The notes: a model not told the origin generated them from the sequence alone. A DNA stretch of 20,000 nucleotides from Promethearchaeati archaeon SRVP18_Atabeyarchaeia-1 (GCA_037308085.1 CP147779.1:777527-797526), one strand, 5' to 3'; positions 2,056 through 17,947 are shown, counted from the first letter of the stretch. Made by a program: numbers and translations.

Positions 2056-3576
2056 GTGAAGATGCAAGGAAAGGAAATCGGATCGGTGGTTTGCACTATT
2101 GATGGGCCAAGCTCAACAGAGTTTAGCTTCGTTGTGACAAGATCGACTGAGGGCGATGTACCAGTCAGGAGAGGACAGCTCGTTGAGCTCAAGGGAGAAG
2201 AAGGGGAAGTCATAGGATCCGTAACTGAGATCCTGAAGACCAACAGGTACTTCGAGAGGGCTGAGGCTGTCAAGGAATTTGAGAGAAGCGCCCCAATTAG
2301 GACAATCTTTCCAGTTGACAGGTGGGAATATGTAATCGCAACTGCAAAATTGATGGGGGTGCGCAACAGTGCAAACGGAAGATTCGTGAAGGCGGATTAC
2401 CCACCAAGCCCCGGTGAAAAAGTCTACCTAGCTGAGGATGAACTGATATCCGACATTTTGGGTTTCGAACGCGAGGATGGGTTATACCTCGGAACGCTCT
2501 ACCAGCACAGCACGAAAGTGAGCCTTAATCTCACGAGGCTTCTGCAGAAACATGCCGCCTTACTCGGAATCTCCGGCGGAGGGAAGTCGTATCTTGCCTC
2601 TGTGATGATCGAGGAGTTGCTCTCGCGAAGAAAGGAGCAGGGGCGTTTAGCCATAGTTGTCGTTGATGTTCACGGAGAGTACACTTCTCTTGCAGAGAAA
2701 CCCAGTGAAACCAGCATTGAGGATTACTCGGGTAGGGTTACAGTCGTCAAGGGGAGTTACTTTGAAATCGCCGCGCGCCACCTGAGTCCGGTCCTGATGA
2801 TGGAGCTCGCTCCTCAGATGTCGGTGATCCAAGCTAGGGAACTAAGCAGAATATTCGATGGCGTGAAGAAGAGGTCGATGGAGTCGAAACAGCCATTCTC
2901 CTTGCCAGACATAATCAAAGACGTGGAATCAGACGAACACATAAATCCAAGGAGCAAGGAGGCTTTACTGGGGTGGCTCTTTGACCTCGAGAGCCTGAAA
3001 ATCGTCGGACGTGAAGAGAACCCTAGCCTCGACGACGCGTTGGCGCCTGGTAAAGCGGTGATAATTGATCTCAGCGACACCGTGAATCTGCGCAGGAAGC
3101 AGATTATCGTCACCTATCTCGCAACGAGGCTGTTCTCGCTGAGGAGAAGAGAAGAGGTTCCTCCCTTTGTGATGATCCTAGAAGAGGCACACCAGTTTTG
3201 CCCTGAAGGAAGCAAGATCCGCGCGCCTTCGAGAGGGATCATTGAGACGATAGCGAGGGAAGGAAGGAAATTCTTTGCATCACTTGTCCTGATCAGCCAG
3301 AGGCCAGTAAGGCTATCAACAACAGTGTTATCACAGTGCAACACTCACATCGTGATGAGGGTTACAAACCCCTATGACCTTCAGCATATCGGTGAGAGCA
3401 GTGAGGGTATTGATCGTCCTGCTCTCGACATTATCTCGTCCCTGCGGGCAGGGGAAGCGCTCATAGTGGGCTCAGCAGTGAATTTTCCGATCTTCATGTC
3501 AATAAGAAAAAGGAAGTCCAACGAGCCTCGGCTTTCAAGAAGCCTTGAAGAGGTTGCTAGGCGCTTCGATTCCTAG
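2056..3576 (+). CDS. herA: HerA-family DNA translocase/helicase
   Basis: Walker A-like LLGISGGGKSYLASVM, Walker B-like FVMILEEAHQFCPEGS, and IETIAREGRKF...LISQRPVRLSTTVLSQCNTHIVMR. Start is GTG 2056 or ATG 2062. Confidence 0.95.
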   Translation: MKMQGKEIGSVVCTIDGPSSTEFSFVVTRSTEGDVPVRRGQLVELKGEEGEVIGSVTEILKTNRYFERAEAVKEFERSAPIRTIFPVDRWEYVIATAKLMGVRNSANGRFVKADYPPSPGEKVYLAEDELISDILGFEREDGLYLGTLYQHSTKVSLNLTRLLQKHAALLGISGGGKSYLASVMIEELLSRRKEQGRLAIVVVDVHGEYTSLAEKPSETSIEDYSGRVTVVKGSYFEIAARHLSPVLMMELAPQMSVIQARELSRIFDGVKKRSMESKQPFSLPDIIKDVESDEHINPRSKEALLGWLFDLESLKIVGREENPSLDDALAPGKAVIIDLSDTVNLRRKQIIVTYLATRLFSLRRREEVPPFVMILEEAHQFCPEGSKIRAPSRGIIETIAREGRKFFASLVLISQRPVRLSTTVLSQCNTHIVMRVTNPYDLQHIGESSEGIDRPALDIISSLRAGEALIVGSAVNFPIFMSIRKRKSNEPRLSRSLEEVARRFDS

Positions 3577-3858: not shown

Positions 3859-4036
3859 TTTGCATCAACTCACTAGATTAGCTACAGCCTGAAACAGCGA
3901 CCGCGTTGGCGGTTGTTCTGTTCTGCTATACATTTAGTCCTCTCACTATTTAATATTTGCTTTGTCTATACAATGATCCCGGCGTTTCTATGCTTAAGAA
4001 AGTCTTTAAGCTTAGCAGCTCACTATTTTGCTCTTG

Positions 4037-5021
4037 ATGGCGAGAGATGATTTCACCCAATTCATGAAACCTCTAAGAAGGAGGTATCCAGAGATTCGCT
4101 CAGCAAGGATCTTCAGAACGATAGACGACATGGACACGAAGATACTTGGATCAATAGAGCTAGGGATGCGGAGATTCGAGTTTGTTCCAATAGAAGAGTT
4201 GCTGAAGATGACTAGGCTTTCGAGGAACGACCTTGACTTCCGTCTTTCAAAGCTTCTCAAGAAGGAGTTGGCTAGACGCTGGGTTGGTTCGTACGTTGGC
4301 TTTGAAGTTAGTCAGGTTGGCTATGACTGCCTAGCGTTTCATGCGTTAGTCAAGGAGAACGTGCTGGAAGCTATAGGTCCGCCCGTGGGCGTCGGGAAGG
4401 AATGCACATGCCGCCAACTACGGCCTGCAGAGTGGTCAGCAGTGCACTGAGTCTGACGTCTACAGGGTTTCATTGACCTCAGGGGAACCCGCAGTCATCA
4501 AGCTCCACAGACATGGCAGAACGAGTTTCCGAACTGTAAGGAGGACAAGGGGATATGTAGCTGACAGAAGGCATACATCCTGGCTGTATATCTCGAGACT
4601 GGCAGCGACAAGAGAATATTTGGGGCTTCAGAGGCTCTACCCTGCCGGGGTATCCGTTCCCAAACCCATTGCCCAGAACAGGCATGCTATTGTAATGGGG
4701 GTAATCGAAGGTAACTCACTGGCGGAGTGCCATGTCCTGCGCAGACCTTCCAGAATGCTAGATGAAATCATCGAGAATATTAAGAAGGCCTACATCAAGG
4801 CTGACATTATTCATGCAGATCTGAGCGAGTATAATGTTCTGGTGACGCCGAAACTCAAGACTCTAATTATCGATTGGCCTCAATGGATTAGCTCAAACCA
4901 TCCCAACTGGCGCTTCTACCTTGAGAGAGATCTGACGAACATACTGAATTTCTTCGAAAGAAAATTCGGAATAAGGAAGGAACTCTCAGAAGTTTTTGCT
5001 TACGTGACGTCTCCCAAGTGA
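4037..5021 (+). CDS. rio2: RIO2-type serine kinase, reading frame interrupted by a 49-nt insertion
   Basis: Exon 1 ends ...GFEVSQVGYDCLAFHALVKENVLEAIGPPVGVGKE. The second part, in a different frame, resumes SDVYRVSLTSGEPAVIKLHRHGRTSFRTVRRTRGY...HTSWLYISRLAATREY...IIHADLSEYNVLV...IIDWPQW. Joining across the insertion (about 4403..4451) restores the RIO2 motif GVGKESDVY. Confidence 0.85.
4403..4451 (+). other. Candidate archaeal intron in rio2 (49 nt; boundaries ambiguous by up to 3 nt)
   Basis: The frame-disrupting 49-nt insert sits exactly between GVGKE and SDVY. It begins near an internal stem UGCAC(4403-4407)/GUGCA(4442-4446). Flanking GGCGUC/GACGUC can pair outside it. I found no canonical 3-4-3 BHB. 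Confidence 0.5.
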
Positions 5022-5641
5022 CATGCGTCAGCCAATCGGCTTCAGAATTGTCTGAGAGAAATACCGAGAAAACAATTGTTAAAGGAACCGATGATTCCCC
5101 AGCCACTAACGCTTGCCACCATCCATAGGCTTACGCCTTACGCTCAGACAAGTTCTCTCTGTGAGGGGAATGTTAGGGTTCGGTTCCCACGCACGGTCTG
5201 TACCCCTTTTGGGTATGGCTTTATGCGCGCACCAACCATTATTTGAATGCGCTCTGCACTCATTTCCTGGCGAATCGCCGGAAGGATTCGTGTCGAGTCC
5301 GTTCTAAGGGGTAGTTTCGACCATGCAGCTCCGGTGTTGCCTATCCCCTTGCTCCAGTTATCATCGATTCAAACTGGTCCTCTTTAGGAAGGCTACCGTC
5401 CCTTCATCGCTAAGAACACTACAGGAACTGATTTGGTTAAAAGGACTACTCTCTACGAAGAGATGCAGAGCGTCAGATGATCCGTCTTGTTTTTCGTGGC
5501 TTCTTGGCAACCAAAGAGAGAAGGGCGATGGTAAGAATCGTTGCCTTCTCCCTGTTGGAAAACATGTCTCCTCGATTCACACCGTTTATGACTATTCAAG
5601 ATACCTTGGTTTTGGAATGATAGAAAAAGAAAGAAATGGAG

Positions 5642-6748
5642 TTAGGCTGGGCGTATGTTCGTCTGTTCTGTTCGAAGTGGGGTTGGTTGGTTCTCTTTTG
5701 GTTGTTTCTCTGTTCTGTGTTTCTCATAGTATACTCTCGTCCAGTAACCTCGCGTTGGTTTTTGAATACCGAGTCTATCACATCTTCTCGTTACCGCTCC
5801 ATCTGTAACGTTGTACCTGGTAGCAATGTGTATCAAGGGCATTTCTTGCACTAATCGTTCTGGTTCTTCCTTCGTGATTGCTCTCCATTCACTCTGTAGT
5901 TCTCTTCTTCTTTGAATCTTCTCGGGTGTGTGAGCTTCAGCGGCTCTACGTGCTTTTTCCTTTGGATCACATGGAAACCATCGTTTTCTAGGCATGCTCT
6001 GAGTGTAGTTCTTCATCATCTCATTGAACAACCTGGCACCAAGGCACATGATGCATTCAGTTCCCTTTGTCTTTCGACCAAGTATCACTTCTTCGTCTGC
6101 GCGTCTATGAATCCTGTATCCCAGATCAAACCTATCTTTGACCTGTTCCACAAATCGGATGTTGCCAGACGTGATCGCTGTCGTATGCTGTATTCCGTCG
6201 CCGTCATAGTAGCCTAGTAGAAAGGCGAGTTCCAGATCTCTGCGAGGCAACTTCGGATATTCAATTCGCTTTGATTTTCTAGGGATAAGTCCATGTGTCA
6301 GAAGATCGTTGCCCATTTTTCTGCAGGCGAAGATAATCAGAGTTGATACCTTTCCGTTCTTCTCCGTCACGTGTTTCTTTTTGTCTTTGTTAAGCCCAAG
6401 GCAGTCGCAGTACTTTTCGATCGTTTCTTCGTCTTTTTGACTAAGCTTCATTACAATTTCCATTGCTCCAGTTCTAGAGTCTCTCTTGATGCAGCCGTCG
6501 GCGAAGAGAAATCCTAGCCAATATGCTTTCTCTTTCGTGTCTATTTTGCCAAAGTAATTGAGTTTCAGGTTCGGGTGGACTGTATTCGCTTTCCACTTCT
6601 CGTACCATCGCTCCATCTGAACATTCTTCCTCCAGGTGCTCTTTGTCATATGGTTTTTCAGTCCCTTCTCTCTCTGCAACGTTCTACGAGTCACAGCGCC
6701 TGGGGAAAGGCTTCGCACAGTGAATACATCCTTTAATGTGCACATCAC
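5642..6748 (-). CDS. LAGLIDADG homing endonuclease
   Basis: Two LAGLIDADG-like motifs, KEKAYWLGFLFADGCI and LELAFLLGYYDGDGI. A C-terminal HTH-like segment reads IHIATRYNVTDGAVTRRCDRLGI. The true start may be an internal Met. Confidence 0.88.
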   Translation of the reverse strand: MMCTLKDVFTVRSLSPGAVTRRTLQREKGLKNHMTKSTWRKNVQMERWYEKWKANTVHPNLKLNYFGKIDTKEKAYWLGFLFADGCIKRDSRTGAMEIVMKLSQKDEETIEKYCDCLGLNKDKKKHVTEKNGKVSTLIIFACRKMGNDLLTHGLIPRKSKRIEYPKLPRRDLELAFLLGYYDGDGIQHTTAITSGNIRFVEQVKDRFDLGYRIHRRADEEVILGRKTKGTECIMCLGARLFNEMMKNYTQSMPRKRWFPCDPKEKARRAAEAHTPEKIQRRRELQSEWRAITKEEPERLVQEMPLIHIATRYNVTDGAVTRRCDRLGIQKPTRGYWTRVYYEKHRTEKQPKENQPTPLRTEQTNIRPA

Positions 6749-6769
6749 AGGAATGCTCGCTAGCTATGG

Positions 6770-7053
6770 TTGCTTTCTCAACAGACTCTTCCCATGGCTT
6801 GAAGCTGGTGGGCTTTCCGTTTCGTTTGCTTCTTCTCCGCCCGTCGCCGGGTCGGTGGTTCCGGAAAGCCTATTGTGGAAGTTGCGGCTCCCGGGCTTTC
6901 GCGCGCCGCGCTTTTCCAGCCCGCTCACCTCGCCAGGCGTGGTGGGTTACGCTTCGCGTCTCGGTGCTCGGAGACCACCATCCGCCCTGGGAAACAGAGA
7001 CTCAGGCTCTTTGCATCGGGGGCGCCACCCCGCGCGGTCTCACCCCAAGGCCC
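6770..7053 (-). ncRNA. Candidate GC-rich structured RNA, class not identified
   Basis: The segment is locally very GC-rich with dense nested stems: CGGGG/CCCCG, GUCUC/GAGAC, ACGC(GAA)GCGU, CGGGCU/AGCCCG, GCGC(GGC)GCGC and CCCG(GCGA)CGGG with a GNRA loop. A TATA-like box (minus CTTAAATAC, about 7075-7083) lies about 25 nt upstream of the apparent RNA start near 7053. Confidence 0.45.
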
Positions 7054-7074
7054 AAAGAAATACGCGCAACGGAA

Positions 7075-7083
7075 GTATTTAAG
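7075..7083 (-). promoter_or_regulatory. TATA-like box for the GC-rich RNA candidate
   Basis: Minus strand CTTAAATAC about 25 nt upstream of GGGCCTTGGGG. Confidence 0.4.
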
Positions 7084-7158
7084 CCAACCATCTGGCGGGC
7101 ATGGTTCTTCCCACCCCTGAAGGGAGTGGGCTTCCCTGCGACAGAATTGTAAAGCTGG

Positions 7159-14512: not shown

Positions 14513-14714
14513 ATTACTGGTCTCCTATCACAGTGTTGATCCTTCTCATTTACTCTCAAAGACTAGCATGATTTGACTCCAGCTTTTTATAAACTTGTGT
14601 GTTTAGGCAATCGAGAAGGCAAGGCATTCGGTCGATTCCCGCAACACCAGAAAGAATCCACGCGCAGCTCCCACTACCAGCAACCCACGGATGAAATGCC
14701 CCGAGAAACAAAGA

Positions 14715-14892
14715 GTGGCAACAATCCGTGGTCGGAACGGGAACGGGTGTTACCCCTCGCCTATGACCGGCGGCGCACCGCCAGCCGTCCAAGCTTCCCG
14801 AGAGATCTCTCATCTCAGTACAACTTGCACCGCGCGAGGACTTAACTCTCACGGCCGAGGTTGGCACCTGGTCGGCTCTCACGTGTTGCCAC
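14715..14892 (-). rRNA. Circularly permuted 5S rRNA gene (3' half first, then 5' half) with complementary flanking arms
   Basis: 3' half is minus 14847->14778: AGUUAAGUCCUCGCGCGGUGCAAGUUGUACUGAGAUGAGAGAUCUCUCGGGAAGCUUGGACGGCUGGCGG. Loop UGCG is 14777-14774. 5' half is minus 14773->14725: CCGCCGGUCAUAGGCGAGGGGUAACACCCGUUCCCGUUCCGACCACGGA. The reconstituted RNA is 119 nt. Helix I CUGGCGG/CCGCCGG, helix II GCGAGG/CCUCGC, helix IV GAGAU/AUCUC and helix V CAAG/CUUG all form. Flanking arms GUGGCAACA (minus 14892-14884) and UGUUGCCAC (minus 14723-14715) are perfectly complementary. Confidence 0.85.
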
Positions 14893-14922
14893 CAAAGGTA
14901 CGTGTATTATCAAAGAATAGTT

Positions 14923-14930: not shown

Positions 14931-15288
14931 CTTAGCGATATCGGGTTCTGTTAACTTAGCGTGGGACGGGGAAGAGTGTTAAGCACATTGGGGTGGTACC
15001 GTCTCTATTCAGTGGATCCCCTATGGGCACGTAAGTTATAGGGAGAGTGTAGTGGGGGGCTCGAAAAGGAGAATGCACAGGACGCGATCTTCTTAACTTG
15101 CGCGCAGGGTATAGAAGGTTGATCCAGGCTAAGTCAACAGAACCTAACATCATCCAGACGTAAATCAATCTGGGAACCTCTCAATCATGGCAAGTTCACG
15201 GGGGTATAGAGAAATGCTTAACTATCAGATTAATCGCAATCTAACTAGCAGGGGCTGTAGCCTAGCCTGGGTGGGCATCGGGCTCCAG

Positions 15289-15357
15289 TTATGTTGTATC
15301 CATTGAACGCGACCGTAATCGGGATGACGAGTTACTGGAGCGGCCCATACGGGAGAA
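15289..15357 (+). other. Intron 1 of tRNA-Trp (canonical 37/38 position, 69 nt)
   Basis: BHB: exon CUCC (15283-15286) pairs with intron GGAG (15352-15355). Bulges are AG|U (15287-15289) and AA|A (15356-15358). Anticodon stem CCCGA follows. Confidence 0.85.
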
Positions 15358-15365
15358 ACCCGAAG

Positions 15366-15396
15366 AGTGAATTGCTCGATGCGGGTTCACGCGGAA
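15366..15396 (+). other. Intron 2 of tRNA-Trp (variable loop, 31 nt)
   Basis: Bulges AG|A (15364-15366) and AA|G (15395-15397). Central CCG/CGG plus an A.G mismatch. Inner helix GUGAA/UUCAC. Removal gives the canonical variable loop AGGUC. Confidence 0.75.
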
Positions 15397-15415
15397 GTCG
15401 GGAGTTCAAAACTCC

Positions 15416-15447
15416 ACGAGATCATGTCTCCTGGTCTGAGAGTCTCC
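15416..15447 (+). other. Intron 3 of tRNA-Trp (3' side of T-stem, 32 nt, boundaries ambiguous by up to 4 nt)
   Basis: Needed to complete T-stem CUCCC and acceptor CAGCCCC A. ACUC(15411-15414)/GAGU(15440-15443) and AGAUC/GGUCU stems form, but the BHB is noncanonical. Confidence 0.65.
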
Positions 15448-15639
15448 CCAGCCCCACCTATTCCGCCGTTTTTCCGAAGTCAATGCGGATGAACGCATTG
15501 TGTGGCTCCTTTTGCAGAGTGGTAGGGGTGATATACTCGCGGTTTTACACAAGCTTTCCCTGCCATATCATTCTTCCACATTTCCTCTCGCCAAAATTGT
15601 TGACACGGAGTAGGTGGGTCAATCAGTTGTGAAAGGAAT

Positions 15640-15923
15640 CAAAATACAGGATAATACTGCCAACTTTGGGAAACGGTATGTGAATAACACATGGAAACGT
15701 CCTTGACCCAGCACACTCTTGAGCTCTAAATAGGATCGACCATTGACGCTACTGGTGAAAGGGAAGTAAAGACTTGCCTATCAGCATGTGGGGGAACTTC
15801 CACATCTTGGGTGCGGTAACTAGCCATTGTGAAGATGCTACTAGCAGTGACGAAGGGAATGGTGGCGCTGCTTTCAGAACCATCAACTCGACCAGGATCT
15901 TTCCCAGTGGCAAGCTCCAACTG
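15640..15923 (+). ncRNA. Candidate omegaRNA (HEARO-type) upstream of iscB; 5' boundary unknown
   Basis: Structured sequence immediately upstream of the IscB start: AUGUGG(15786-15791)/CCACAU(15800-15805), and a terminal CAGGAUCUUUCCCAGUGGCAAGCUCCAACUG element with CUU/AAG, GA/UC and CAG/CUG pairs. Position relative to the ORF matches known IscB omegaRNAs. Confidence 0.55.
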
Positions 15924-17260
15924 ATGCCGAACACCTACGTTTTCGTTCTTTGCAGGTGCCGCAGACCTCTGATGCCAACAACTGCACCCAAAGCCAGGAT
16001 TCTACTGAAACAGAACAGAGCAAAGGTTTTCCGTCTATATCCCTTCACGATACAGCTTAACTATGAGACCCATCACCAGGCGCAACCTATGGAGATACGG
16101 ATCGACTATGGTGCCAAGACGCATGGCATCGCTCTAGTACAGCAGTGCAAAACACAAGAGCGAGCAGTCTTTCTCGGTGAGGCGCAGCAACGAAAAGATG
16201 TCAAGAAGAAAATGGACATAAGGAGGGAAATGCGCAGACTGAGAAGATACAGGAACACTCGTTACAGAAAACCACGGTTCAGCAACCGTAGACGACCAGA
16301 AGGCTGGGTGCCGCCAACTATAGCCCAAAGAGTCGAGTCAATCACAAGAATCGCGCGAACTCTAGAGAAGCTAACTTCAATTACCAGCGTAGTAACTGAA
16401 ATCGGCATGTTTGATGCACAGAAGATGAACGACCCAGAGATAGAGGGTATCGAATACCAGCAAGGTCCTGGTCATGGCTCGAAAACAAGAAACAAGCGAC
16501 CCTAGCGTACTTCAACTACATATGTCAATACTGTGGAGCAGAAAGGGGCATAATGACAGTAGACCATGTTATGCCGACAAGTAAGGGGGGCACAGACACC
16601 TGGAACAACCTAACATGTGCGTGCTTGGCCTGCAACAAGAAGAAGAACGACCGTACCCCAGAAGAAGCAAATATGTAATACCCCAAAACGGTAAAACCAA
16701 GAGAAGCGCATTTCCTGAAGTTTTGTGCACTAATGCAATCAGGAAAAACCAGACTTGTCAACGAACTGAAGAAACTTGCACCTACACAAACGGTATACGG
16801 CTGGCAGACAAAACGGAACCGGGAGACAGCAAATCTGCCGAAGACTCACTACTTCGATGCACTCTGCACGAGAAACATAAACCAAAAACCAATTAGATTG
16901 ACAGGCAATGTTTACTGGATCAGACTCAGGAGACGCAACATAAGGCGAACACATCTCGTGAATCCCATGAAAGGAGGGAAGAGGCAGCCTTACAACCAAA
17001 ATAAGGAACTTCAAGGATATAGGAAAGGCGACCTAGTTCGAACTCCACACGGACTAGCATACATAGTAGGAATTCTGACCTCAGGACAGCTTCAATATCA
17101 GACCATCTACGGACAAATACAGAAAAGAATCCCCAAGCAAGTCAAGCTAGTCGAGAGCACAAGAGGTGTCCGCTTCTTTCCAATGAAGAAAGAAGCCCGA
17201 GCCAAGTATCGTTTTGGAGACCAAGCGAGGCCTTCAGAAACTAGGGTCAGTGATGCTTAA
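15924..17260 (+). pseudogene. iscB: IscB-family RNA-guided nuclease (PLMP, RuvC I-III, bridge helix, HNH), split by one frameshift and one stop
   Basis: Frame 3: VFVLCRCRRPLMPTTAPKARILLKQNRAKV (PLMP), IRIDYGAKTHGIALV (RuvC-I), RREMRRLRRYRNTRYRKPRFSNRRRPEGWVPPTIAQRVESI (bridge), VVTEIGMFDAQKMNDPEIEGIEYQQG (RuvC-II). Frame 2: YICQYCGAERGIMTVDHVMPTSKGGTDTWNNLTCACLACNKKKNDRT (HNH), TAA at 16676, then LPKTHYFDALC (RuvC-III) and a C-terminal YRKGDLVRTPHGLAYIVG. Confidence 0.9.
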
Positions 17261-17289
17261 TGAGGCGTTAGGCATATGAACTATGTCTG

Positions 17290-17400
17290 GGAGGTTAGCT
17301 CAAATACCACCACGGAATGCATGCTCTAGTTCCGTGCTCTGGGAGTCTGGGTGAAGGAAAGCTTCCGCCAAGCCCAGGGTGCTCTACTCTCAGCGGCAAC
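17290..17400. ncRNA. Structured RNA candidate downstream of iscB
   Basis: CTGGGTGAAG...CTTCCGCCAAGCCCAG and CTCTCA(GCGGCAACG)TGAGAG hairpins are packed into about 110 nt. Confidence 0.3.
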
Positions 17401-17804
17401 GTGAGAGCAACATCATCTAGACACACAGCTTCTCCCGACTTACCCGAAGAGCGACCTAACCCCGCTGATGTGCACGACAGGATCAGTGGGAGATATTACC
17501 TCTGCAAGGTACTGAGATCTGCATAAGAAGACCATCTTCCCCCAGCGTCCATAGTAGGTCTGTCACGATTCCCAGAACGGCTACACAGATCACGTAACAG
17601 GTGACAGAAGGAGCATGGAACTGTATCCGAGAATGTAATGACACGGAGGATCGGTGTCATGTACGCCTATCTGTAAAACGACTATGGAGGGTGATAAGCG
17701 CTCTGGCAAAGAGGTGGGTAGACAGCTTGGAACAGTGGAAATCTCGCTCGCAGCATGACCAGAAAGCTAAATACATAAACCAGAGCTACTGATAAGAGGA
17801 ATAA

Positions 17805-17901
17805 GGGCGGGTAGTCTAGATTGGTATGATACAGACGGTGAAGTCCGTCGTCAATGTGGCTCGGGACCACGTGGTCGTGGGTTCAAATCCCACCTCGCCC
17901 A
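17805..17901 (+). tRNA. tRNA-Pro(CGG) with a 23-nt noncanonical intron
   Basis: Exons 17805-17832 and 17856-17901 join to 74 nt. Acceptor GGGCGGG/CUCGCCC plus A. Anticodon stem CGUGG/CCACG with loop CUCGGGA. T-arm GUGGG UUCAAAU CCCAC. Confidence 0.93.
17833..17855 (+). other. tRNA-Pro intron at position 27/28, BHB
   Basis: Central helix UGAU(17827-17830)/GUCA(17850-17853). Bulges AC|A and AU|G. Inner helix GACGG/CCGUC. Confidence 0.88.
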
Positions 17902-17947
17902 TCCCTTTCTTGTGAAATGTTCTTGTCGGATTGTTAAAAAATCGAGT

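Follow-up and report, generated by a model that had tools for sequence, protein, structure and literature searches.

The window analysed here, a 20,000-nt stretch of archaeal DNA, carries the housekeeping genes NurA, HerA, RIO2, PheRS alpha and beta, MetAP, and DUF1512, together with an inserted element made up of a leader, an iscB pseudogene, and an omega RNA (Table 1). Among named homologues of the DUF1512 protein, the nearest (79%) comes from Candidatus Njordarchaeota and the next ones from other Asgard groups, which by sequence affiliation places the host among the Asgard archaea, as a relative of Njordarchaeota.

Several other features were detected in the window. A 49-nt insert (4403-4451), lying exactly between the GVGKE and SDVY codons, divides the RIO2 kinase gene (4028-5021) into two ORFs, one with Rio2_N and one with the RIO domain. 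A 12-bp helix containing an inner hairpin is predicted to flank the insert (-33.6 kcal/mol, z -1.67); judging from its sequence, the insert may be either an archaeal mRNA intron or a small insertion. The ~2.1 kb that separate the isochorismatase gene from RIO2 (5022-7158) hold a 368-aa LAGLIDADG_3 ORF on the minus strand (5642-6748); the two genes are only ~460 nt apart in contig L016, and contig L015 carries a TnpB-like gene after isochorismatase. Mobile elements appear to accumulate at this site. On the minus strand, 14672-14896 gave two weak, neighbouring matches to 5S rRNA (23.6 and 22.2 bits, against a gathering score of 38), positions 14715-14853 are 85-91% conserved in L016 and L017, and a repeated, TATA-like TTYTTATAAACTT motif occurs at 14584 and 14921. 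The intron-containing tRNA in the right flank of the element (17805-17901, plus strand) was assigned no anticodon by ARAGORN and has an ortholog at 4665-4760 in L015.

Table 1. Features of the inserted element and its flanks, in window coordinates
Feature	Position	Strand	Basis
Left flank, host non-coding DNA	15207-15598		15208-15598 78% identical to L015; 15207-15458 86% identical to L017
Whole inserted element, 1901 nt (leader, iscB pseudogene, omega RNA)	15599-17499	+	Empty site in syntenic contig L015
5' leader of the element (325 nt), starting with a small hairpin	15599-15923	+	Element left end to ATG
iscB pseudogene (PLMP, RuvC-I, bridge helix, RuvC-II, HNH, RuvC-III, C-terminal domain)	15924-17260	+	Profiles, PDB matches, 60-69% identity to full-length P0001-P0005
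Lesion 1, 1-nt deletion that shifts the frame to TAG 16503-16505	16479-16480	+	Codon comparison with eight relative loci
Lesion 2, in-frame TAA	16676-16678	+	Codon comparison with relatives
20 nt directly 5' of the scaffold, the canonical guide position, here internal to the element and inside the ORF tail	17192-17211	+	Differs among copies; no match elsewhere in the window
Omega RNA, HEARO-like scaffold	17212-17500	+	Rfam HEARO, nhmmer, clade covariance model, consensus structure
Right flank, host non-coding DNA, including an intron-containing tRNA	17500-17904		86% identical to L015

IscB is an RNA-guided nuclease and the ancestor of Cas9. The gene in the window opens with an ATG in frame 0 and closes at the premature TAG; its continuation lies in frame 2, which is open from 16415 to 16675, is interrupted by TAA, and runs on from 16679 to a terminal TAA at 17258-17260, so that the deletion and the internal TAA leave no single uninterrupted iscB frame. 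A repaired translation of 445 aa, which we used for profile scoring, reached 327.4 bits with NCBIfam NF040563 (guided_IscB, RNA-guided endonuclease IscB) against a curated cut-off of 175, 203 bits with Pfam RRXRR (the Arg-rich bridge helix), and 52 bits with Pfam HNH and HNH_5, the HNH domain being inserted between RuvC-II and RuvC-III. Solved structures matched by the same translation were those of TbaIscB (9k30), HfmIscB (9k2z), and OgeuIscB (7xht, 7utn). The initial annotation had called this an archaeal IscB with a complete set of catalytic motifs and had proposed alignment to IscB families as a check; these matches bear the call out, and every motif could be located. The N-terminal PLMP motif is present as RPLMPT, RuvC-I contributes D61 (16104-16106), RuvC-II E159 (16398-16400), and RuvC-III H309 (16847-16849) and D312 (16856-16858), all four residues aligning to invariant or near-invariant columns, and the HNH domain shows DH at residues 214-215 (H215, 16565-16567), N229, and N238 (16634-16636). 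Positions 15924-17260 thus encode an archaeal IscB in which all catalytic residues are present.

The two lesions were resolved by comparison with relatives. YQQG ends at 16466 and CQYC starts at 16523, leaving the same 56 nt between them that had been reported before, and the distance from the codon before YQQG to CQYCG is 71 nt in the window versus 72 nt in seven intact relatives. The single indel that had been bracketed within 16467-16522 is one missing nucleotide at 16479-16480: window positions 16476-16486 read GGC T-C GAA AAC (preceded by CAT), and the relatives have a full TTC, TAC, or TCC codon there. Where the annotated TAA stands, seven relatives encode Pro (CCA or CCG), L011 Arg (CGG), and TbaIscB Lys, and the codon after it also differs (TAC vs AAC). 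We found no further frameshift, stop, or domain loss in iscB. A tblastn search with the intact relative P0002 returned two segments that together cover residues 1-403, and additional lesions, which the initial annotation had taken as a mark of old decay, did not appear on alignment, the count being exactly two.

The limits of the element rest on one empty site, in contig L015, where the DUF1512 ortholog is 81% identical and the gene order from DUF1512 to isochorismatase is as in the window. This contig is collinear with window positions 15208-15598 and 17500-17904 and has nothing between them (L015 5062/5061). The window junctions read GCCAAAATT/GTTGACACGG on the left and GGGAGATATTAC/CTCTGCAAGG on the right, the empty site reads GCCAAGATT/CTCTGTAAGG, and the comparison shows an insertion without target-site duplication. 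Contigs L016 and L017 were tried as additional empty sites and set aside because both are rearranged at that position. At the left end of the element, a 6-bp hairpin, GTTGAC(13 nt)GTCAAT at 15599-15623, was read from the sequence and its predicted fold; the right end, as defined by the single empty site, reads TTAC, with RNA helix 12 sitting 9 nt inside it. From this one empty site, no conserved terminal hairpins were identified for the element, and the ORF list of the window contains no transposase-like gene. Because L015 carries a TnpB-like gene, IS200/IS605 elements do occur in this lineage. The element is an IscB-type (ISC / IS200-IS605-like) mobile insertion, the superfamily being assigned from its IscB and omega RNA content and the lack of target duplication. 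On the right, the element terminates together with the 3' end of the omega RNA, and host sequence resumes directly after the RNA.

We also considered what the insertion had interrupted. Disruption of a host protein gene was rejected, since a 61-aa ORF of L015 has no counterpart as an ORF once the element is removed from the window sequence. The flanks (15207-15598 and 17500-17804) are 78-88% conserved with L015 and L017, the neighbouring DUF1512 gene being 74% conserved at the DNA level, and they contain neither an Rfam match nor a conserved ORF. This flanking non-coding DNA may be a host RNA gene that the insertion interrupted.

A cognate structured omega RNA lies beside the gene on the same strand, with its first part overlapping the last 49 nt of the ORF. 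In a permissive scan, Rfam RF02033 HEARO matched 17168-17459 on the plus strand (36.9 bits, E 3e-5), the alignment spanning the full model (positions 1-211). The HEARO gathering score of 83 was not reached by the window (36.9 bits) or by the relatives (31.7-55.7 bits), and homology was accepted because of the full-length alignments, E-values down to 1e-8, and the linkage to IscB in every locus. The nhmmer match to the window RNA has an E-value of 1e-87, and a clade covariance model, built from an alignment of nine RNAs that includes those of L011 and L014, scored 286.6 bits on the window, 264 bits on L011, and 247 bits on L014. The consensus structure has 79 pairs, with 95.7% of cells paired, and compensatory changes in 43 of them, compared with 15.2 +/- 2.7 in shuffles and no more than 9 when partners were slid. 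The window RNA keeps 72 of the 79 pairs, and four of the seven misses fall in the 5' hairpin, which has an insertion. To judge from its sequence, this omega RNA looks intact, though its appearance may reflect the recency of the decay rather than continued function.

The initial annotation had placed a preserved RNA-like leader upstream of the gene, and this part of it did not hold. BLASTN detected no homology between the leader and any relative locus, Rfam returned no HEARO match at E-values up to 10, nhmmer found none, and the clade covariance model gave no match with filters off. The folding energy of the leader is no better than that of shuffled sequence (z +0.25). The omega RNA is the one downstream.

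The arrangement of gene and RNA in relatives sets this element in a wider context. Seven close relative loci (L002-L008) all have the ORF followed by the RNA, the HEARO match beginning 0-110 nt after the stop codon in each, whereas two more distant loci have the RNA directly upstream of the ORF: L011 (protein P0005), with the RNA at 2746-3018 and the ORF from about 3006, and L014 (P0009), with the RNA at 1777-2070 and the ATG at 2085. Window positions 17237-17465 accordingly match L011 2764-2994, which lies upstream of the L011 ORF. BLASTN matches between the window and relative loci start in the first codons (15929-15931), except in the 5'-truncated L002, and end at 17463-17467 (17507 in L004) where the contig reaches that far. 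The clade covariance model found exactly one copy of the RNA family per locus, with an extra weak match of 24.8 bits in L011 at a second, more distant HEARO-type RNA upstream of another ORF. A neighbour-joining protein tree placed the ORF-then-RNA copies in one group in 300 of 300 bootstraps, with canonical P0005 as sister to the clade and canonical P0009 outside it; as a distance tree on few sequences, its bootstrap support is indicative only. The ORF-then-RNA unit occurs in at least five different gene neighbourhoods, and the MAG GCA_019058495.1, which belongs to the window's lineage because it holds the DUF1512 ortholog P0132, has the diverged full-length copies P0001 and P0002. Scans of genome, metagenome, and viral contigs for further clade members gave only distant loci or none.

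An omega RNA in reversed order and abutting the element boundary is common to a small Asgard-associated IscB clade, which was an unexpected result. The element in the window falls within this monophyletic group, where, contrary to the canonical order, the ORF comes first and the omega RNA terminates exactly where the element does. We found no description of a downstream omega RNA for IscB in the literature searched, of which coverage was incomplete.

Some relatives show features of their own. In L003, L005, and L008 (also L006), ~1.2 kb of conserved non-coding DNA lies directly upstream of iscB (L003 1297-2560, L005 1683-2957, L008 1762-2957), with 84% mean column identity, some perfectly identical blocks, and, as read off the alignment, several hairpins with GAAA loops. 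This block shows no codon periodicity and no Rfam match, and it is absent from the window, L004, and L007. The L003 protein P0008, which has PLNP in place of PLMP, was considered as an N-terminally truncated pseudogene and rejected: a single frame spans the whole gene, only the ATG being absent, and the shorter prediction is therefore an artefact of gene calling. In L011, the second HEARO RNA (55.7 bits) lies directly upstream of a 417-aa RRXRR protein in the region 5580-6880; Pfam detected no HNH domain in this protein, which may by its domain content be IsrB-like.

The downstream RNA might instead be the 5' remnant of a tandem canonical element that has lost its ORF, in which case the true partner of the window's iscB would be the leader. 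Canonical elements do carry their RNA upstream, the 325-nt leader is about as long as an omega RNA, and it resembles the start of the canonical L011 scaffold (GTTGAAAG) in opening with GTTGA and a hairpin. Against this stand the searches of the leader with Rfam, nhmmer, and the covariance model with filters off, none of which gave an omega-like signal, and the leader's lack of conservation within the clade, where the downstream RNA is 75-87% conserved with compensatory changes. The same ORF-then-RNA unit, with the same RNA 3' end and full-length ORFs, recurs in at least five genomic contexts, and host sequence picks up directly behind the RNA. We consider a tandem remnant quite unlikely. A remnant of the 3' part of the omega RNA upstream of the relatives' ORFs was also sought and rejected, as local alignments were at shuffle level.

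How the gene came to be broken allows several explanations. The gene could be intact in the organism, with one or both lesions arising from errors of sequencing or assembly: only one base is missing at the frameshift, perhaps out of a TT or CC doublet, elsewhere the protein is conserved to the same degree as in intact relatives, and RIO2, another gene in the window, is interrupted too. Yet the interruption of RIO2 is a 49-nt insert rather than a small indel, the 12 other host ORFs in the window are uninterrupted, and the second lesion, a substitution to TAA accompanied by a neighbouring substitution, would be an atypical consensus error. Relatives have moreover been damaged independently. L001 has a 4-nt AAGC tandem duplication (700-712) just after the GPS codons, two codons from the window's frameshift, and L002 is missing the 5' third of the gene, up to residue ~75. 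These two loci (L001 700-712, L002 2768-2776) are 98%-identical copies of one element, each with a different defect. An error is more plausible for the 1-nt deletion than for the TAA; for the gene as a whole we regard it as unlikely, and we infer that the lesions are real.

Programmed recoding, which the initial annotation had offered as one possibility, would require a -1 frameshift near 16470-16500 plus read-through of TAA 16676 to yield full-length IscB. The shift needed is indeed -1, frame 2 is open from 16415 so that the frames overlap for 89 nt, and a second copy, L001, is frameshifted two codons away. However, no slippery heptamer of the form X XXY YYZ occurs in the overlap window (16415-16503), seven relatives encode the stretch in a single frame, and the L001 lesion is a +4 duplication that would need the opposite shift. 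TAA is a normal terminator in the window, where it ends 4 of 13 host ORFs, including those of PheRS-alpha and DUF1512, and NurA too; TAA, TAG, and TGA each terminate host genes, and stop-codon reassignment finds no place here because TAA terminates conserved ones. A published case of archaeal IscB genes with in-frame stops concerns only TAG and pyrrolysine (bioRxiv 10.1101/2024.09.30.615893), and such recoding is irrelevant to an internal stop that is TAA. Recoding is on these grounds disfavoured and seems to us very improbable. Hardly more credible is a split nuclease assembled from the three ORF fragments (193, 41, and 175 aa): motifs are kept in each fragment and ATG codons occur at 16553 and 16733, but one break interrupts the linker from RuvC-II to HNH and the other separates HNH from RuvC-III, so that segments are left with no start, and no relative is split in this way.

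Recent decay is the best reading of the lesions from the sequence comparison. At 62 columns that are at least 90% conserved, defined from 116 IscBs, the window protein departs from the consensus at four, and intact clade members depart at 4-12. Its identity to the outgroups is 62.9% (P0005) and 44.8% (P0009), compared with 59.4-63.3% and 41.4-44.6% for intact clade members. The decay is judged recent because these departures and distances are no worse than in intact relatives; conserved columns and outgroup identities show no sign of long neutral drift in the window protein, which agrees with the very recent decay suggested in the initial annotation. If the codon at 16676 was CCA before the lesion, two substitutions would be needed, and the decay would then look somewhat older. 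Damaged copies are common in the clade, as the duplicated 4 nt of L001 and the 5' truncation of L002 illustrate.

We suggest that the nuclease gene was recently inactivated by the deletion at 16479-16480 and the nonsense codon at 16676. A full-length RNA-guided nuclease would no longer be expected from it, but at most a 193-aa N-terminal fragment, and the element is probably no longer autonomous as a nuclease. The omega RNA, if transcribed, could act only with IscB supplied by another copy. Nuclease genes borne on insertion sequences decay all the time, and the pseudogene by itself is ordinary and of little weight; its context matters more. Taken as a whole, the locus is best explained by a 1.9 kb insertion with a recently inactivated iscB and an intact-looking 3' omega RNA, belonging to a clade of reversed order, and we hold this explanation with considerable confidence.

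The order of gene and RNA bears on where a guide could come from. In described systems, the IscB omega RNA lies upstream of the ORF, the canonical scaffold starts at the transposon end, and the guide derives from the flank 5' of the scaffold (PMC10055086; PMC9755519). In the window, the RNA follows the ORF, with its 5' side inside the element and its 3' end at the boundary, so that the canonical upstream RNA with a guide from the 5' flank is not what we found. Directly 5' of the scaffold, each copy has a different 20 nt, which in L005 and L008 include the ORF end. In the window copy, these 20 nt (17192-17211) match neither the insertion site nor any other part of the window, and no second match to the 16-mer preceding the scaffold was seen there; among nine loci scanned for a nearby match to the pre-scaffold sequence, only L003 had one (13/16, inverted), and it was not significant.

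Other sources of a guide were tried and set aside. An internal guide matching the insertion site was rejected, as the best match was 9 nt and at shuffle level, and RNA-RNA pairing of the element ends or flanks with the pre-scaffold region (trans-pairing or circularisation) gave duplex energies at shuffle level as well. The pre-scaffold 20-mers were also considered as anti-viral spacers and rejected, two of three queries having no match in the viral collection. The 20-mer of L005 (CAGACAGACGGATGAACTCG) occurs exactly in two related IMG/VR contigs, L018 (6321-6340) and L019 (10746-10765), within a predicted 310-aa ORF with a P-loop (GTGKS) motif, and no omega RNA match was found in either contig. 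By a rough estimate of the size of the collection, ~0.1 viral matches per query are expected by chance, and the match of the L005 20-mer is probably by chance.

The clade nevertheless keeps full-length nucleases and, after the gene, a strongly conserved, covarying scaffold that is flush with the other element end. We tentatively raise the possibility that the ORF-then-omega order is a working architecture, with the guide drawn from an internal fixed segment or, as in TnpB elements, from the 3' flank, although we regard it as more doubtful than probable. Should this arrangement be functional, the guide must come from a source other than the textbook one. It would then be a new wiring of a nuclease of the IscB/Cas9 family to its target and an instance of natural variation in the position of the guide-RNA gene. 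One published pipeline accepted HEARO matches only upstream of the ORF (PMC10055086), and pipelines that accept omega RNAs only there will miss such systems.

Among known systems, the element most resembles the IscB/OMEGA modules of ISC transposons (IS200/IS605 superfamily), such as those of OgeuIscB, HfmIscB, and TbaIscB, with which it shares the protein family and domain order, a HEARO-type RNA, a short element without its own transposase gene, and the absence of a target-site duplication. Unlike canonical IscB/OMEGA modules, it has a broken gene and an Asgard host, and its RNA lies 3' of the ORF and overlaps the ORF end, with the 3' rather than the 5' end of the RNA at the boundary. The RNA resembles Rfam RF02033 HEARO in its full-length alignment, in lying on the same strand as the ORF, and in a multi-helix structure supported by covariation; it differs in a 5' domain reduced to one hairpin, a scaffold of ~290 nt, an extra 3' hairpin, and its position downstream of the ORF. 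The layout of ORF, RNA overlapping the ORF end, and element boundary is shared with the TnpB elements of IS200/IS605, in which the guide comes from the 3' flank of the omega/reRNA. We found no evidence of a 3' guide in the window's element, and in contrast to TnpB its protein and RNA are of IscB/HEARO type, a known architecture that places the guide 5' of the scaffold. The canonical sister copies in L011 (P0005) and L014 (P0009) have an omega RNA of the same family and proteins 63% and 45% identical to that of the window.
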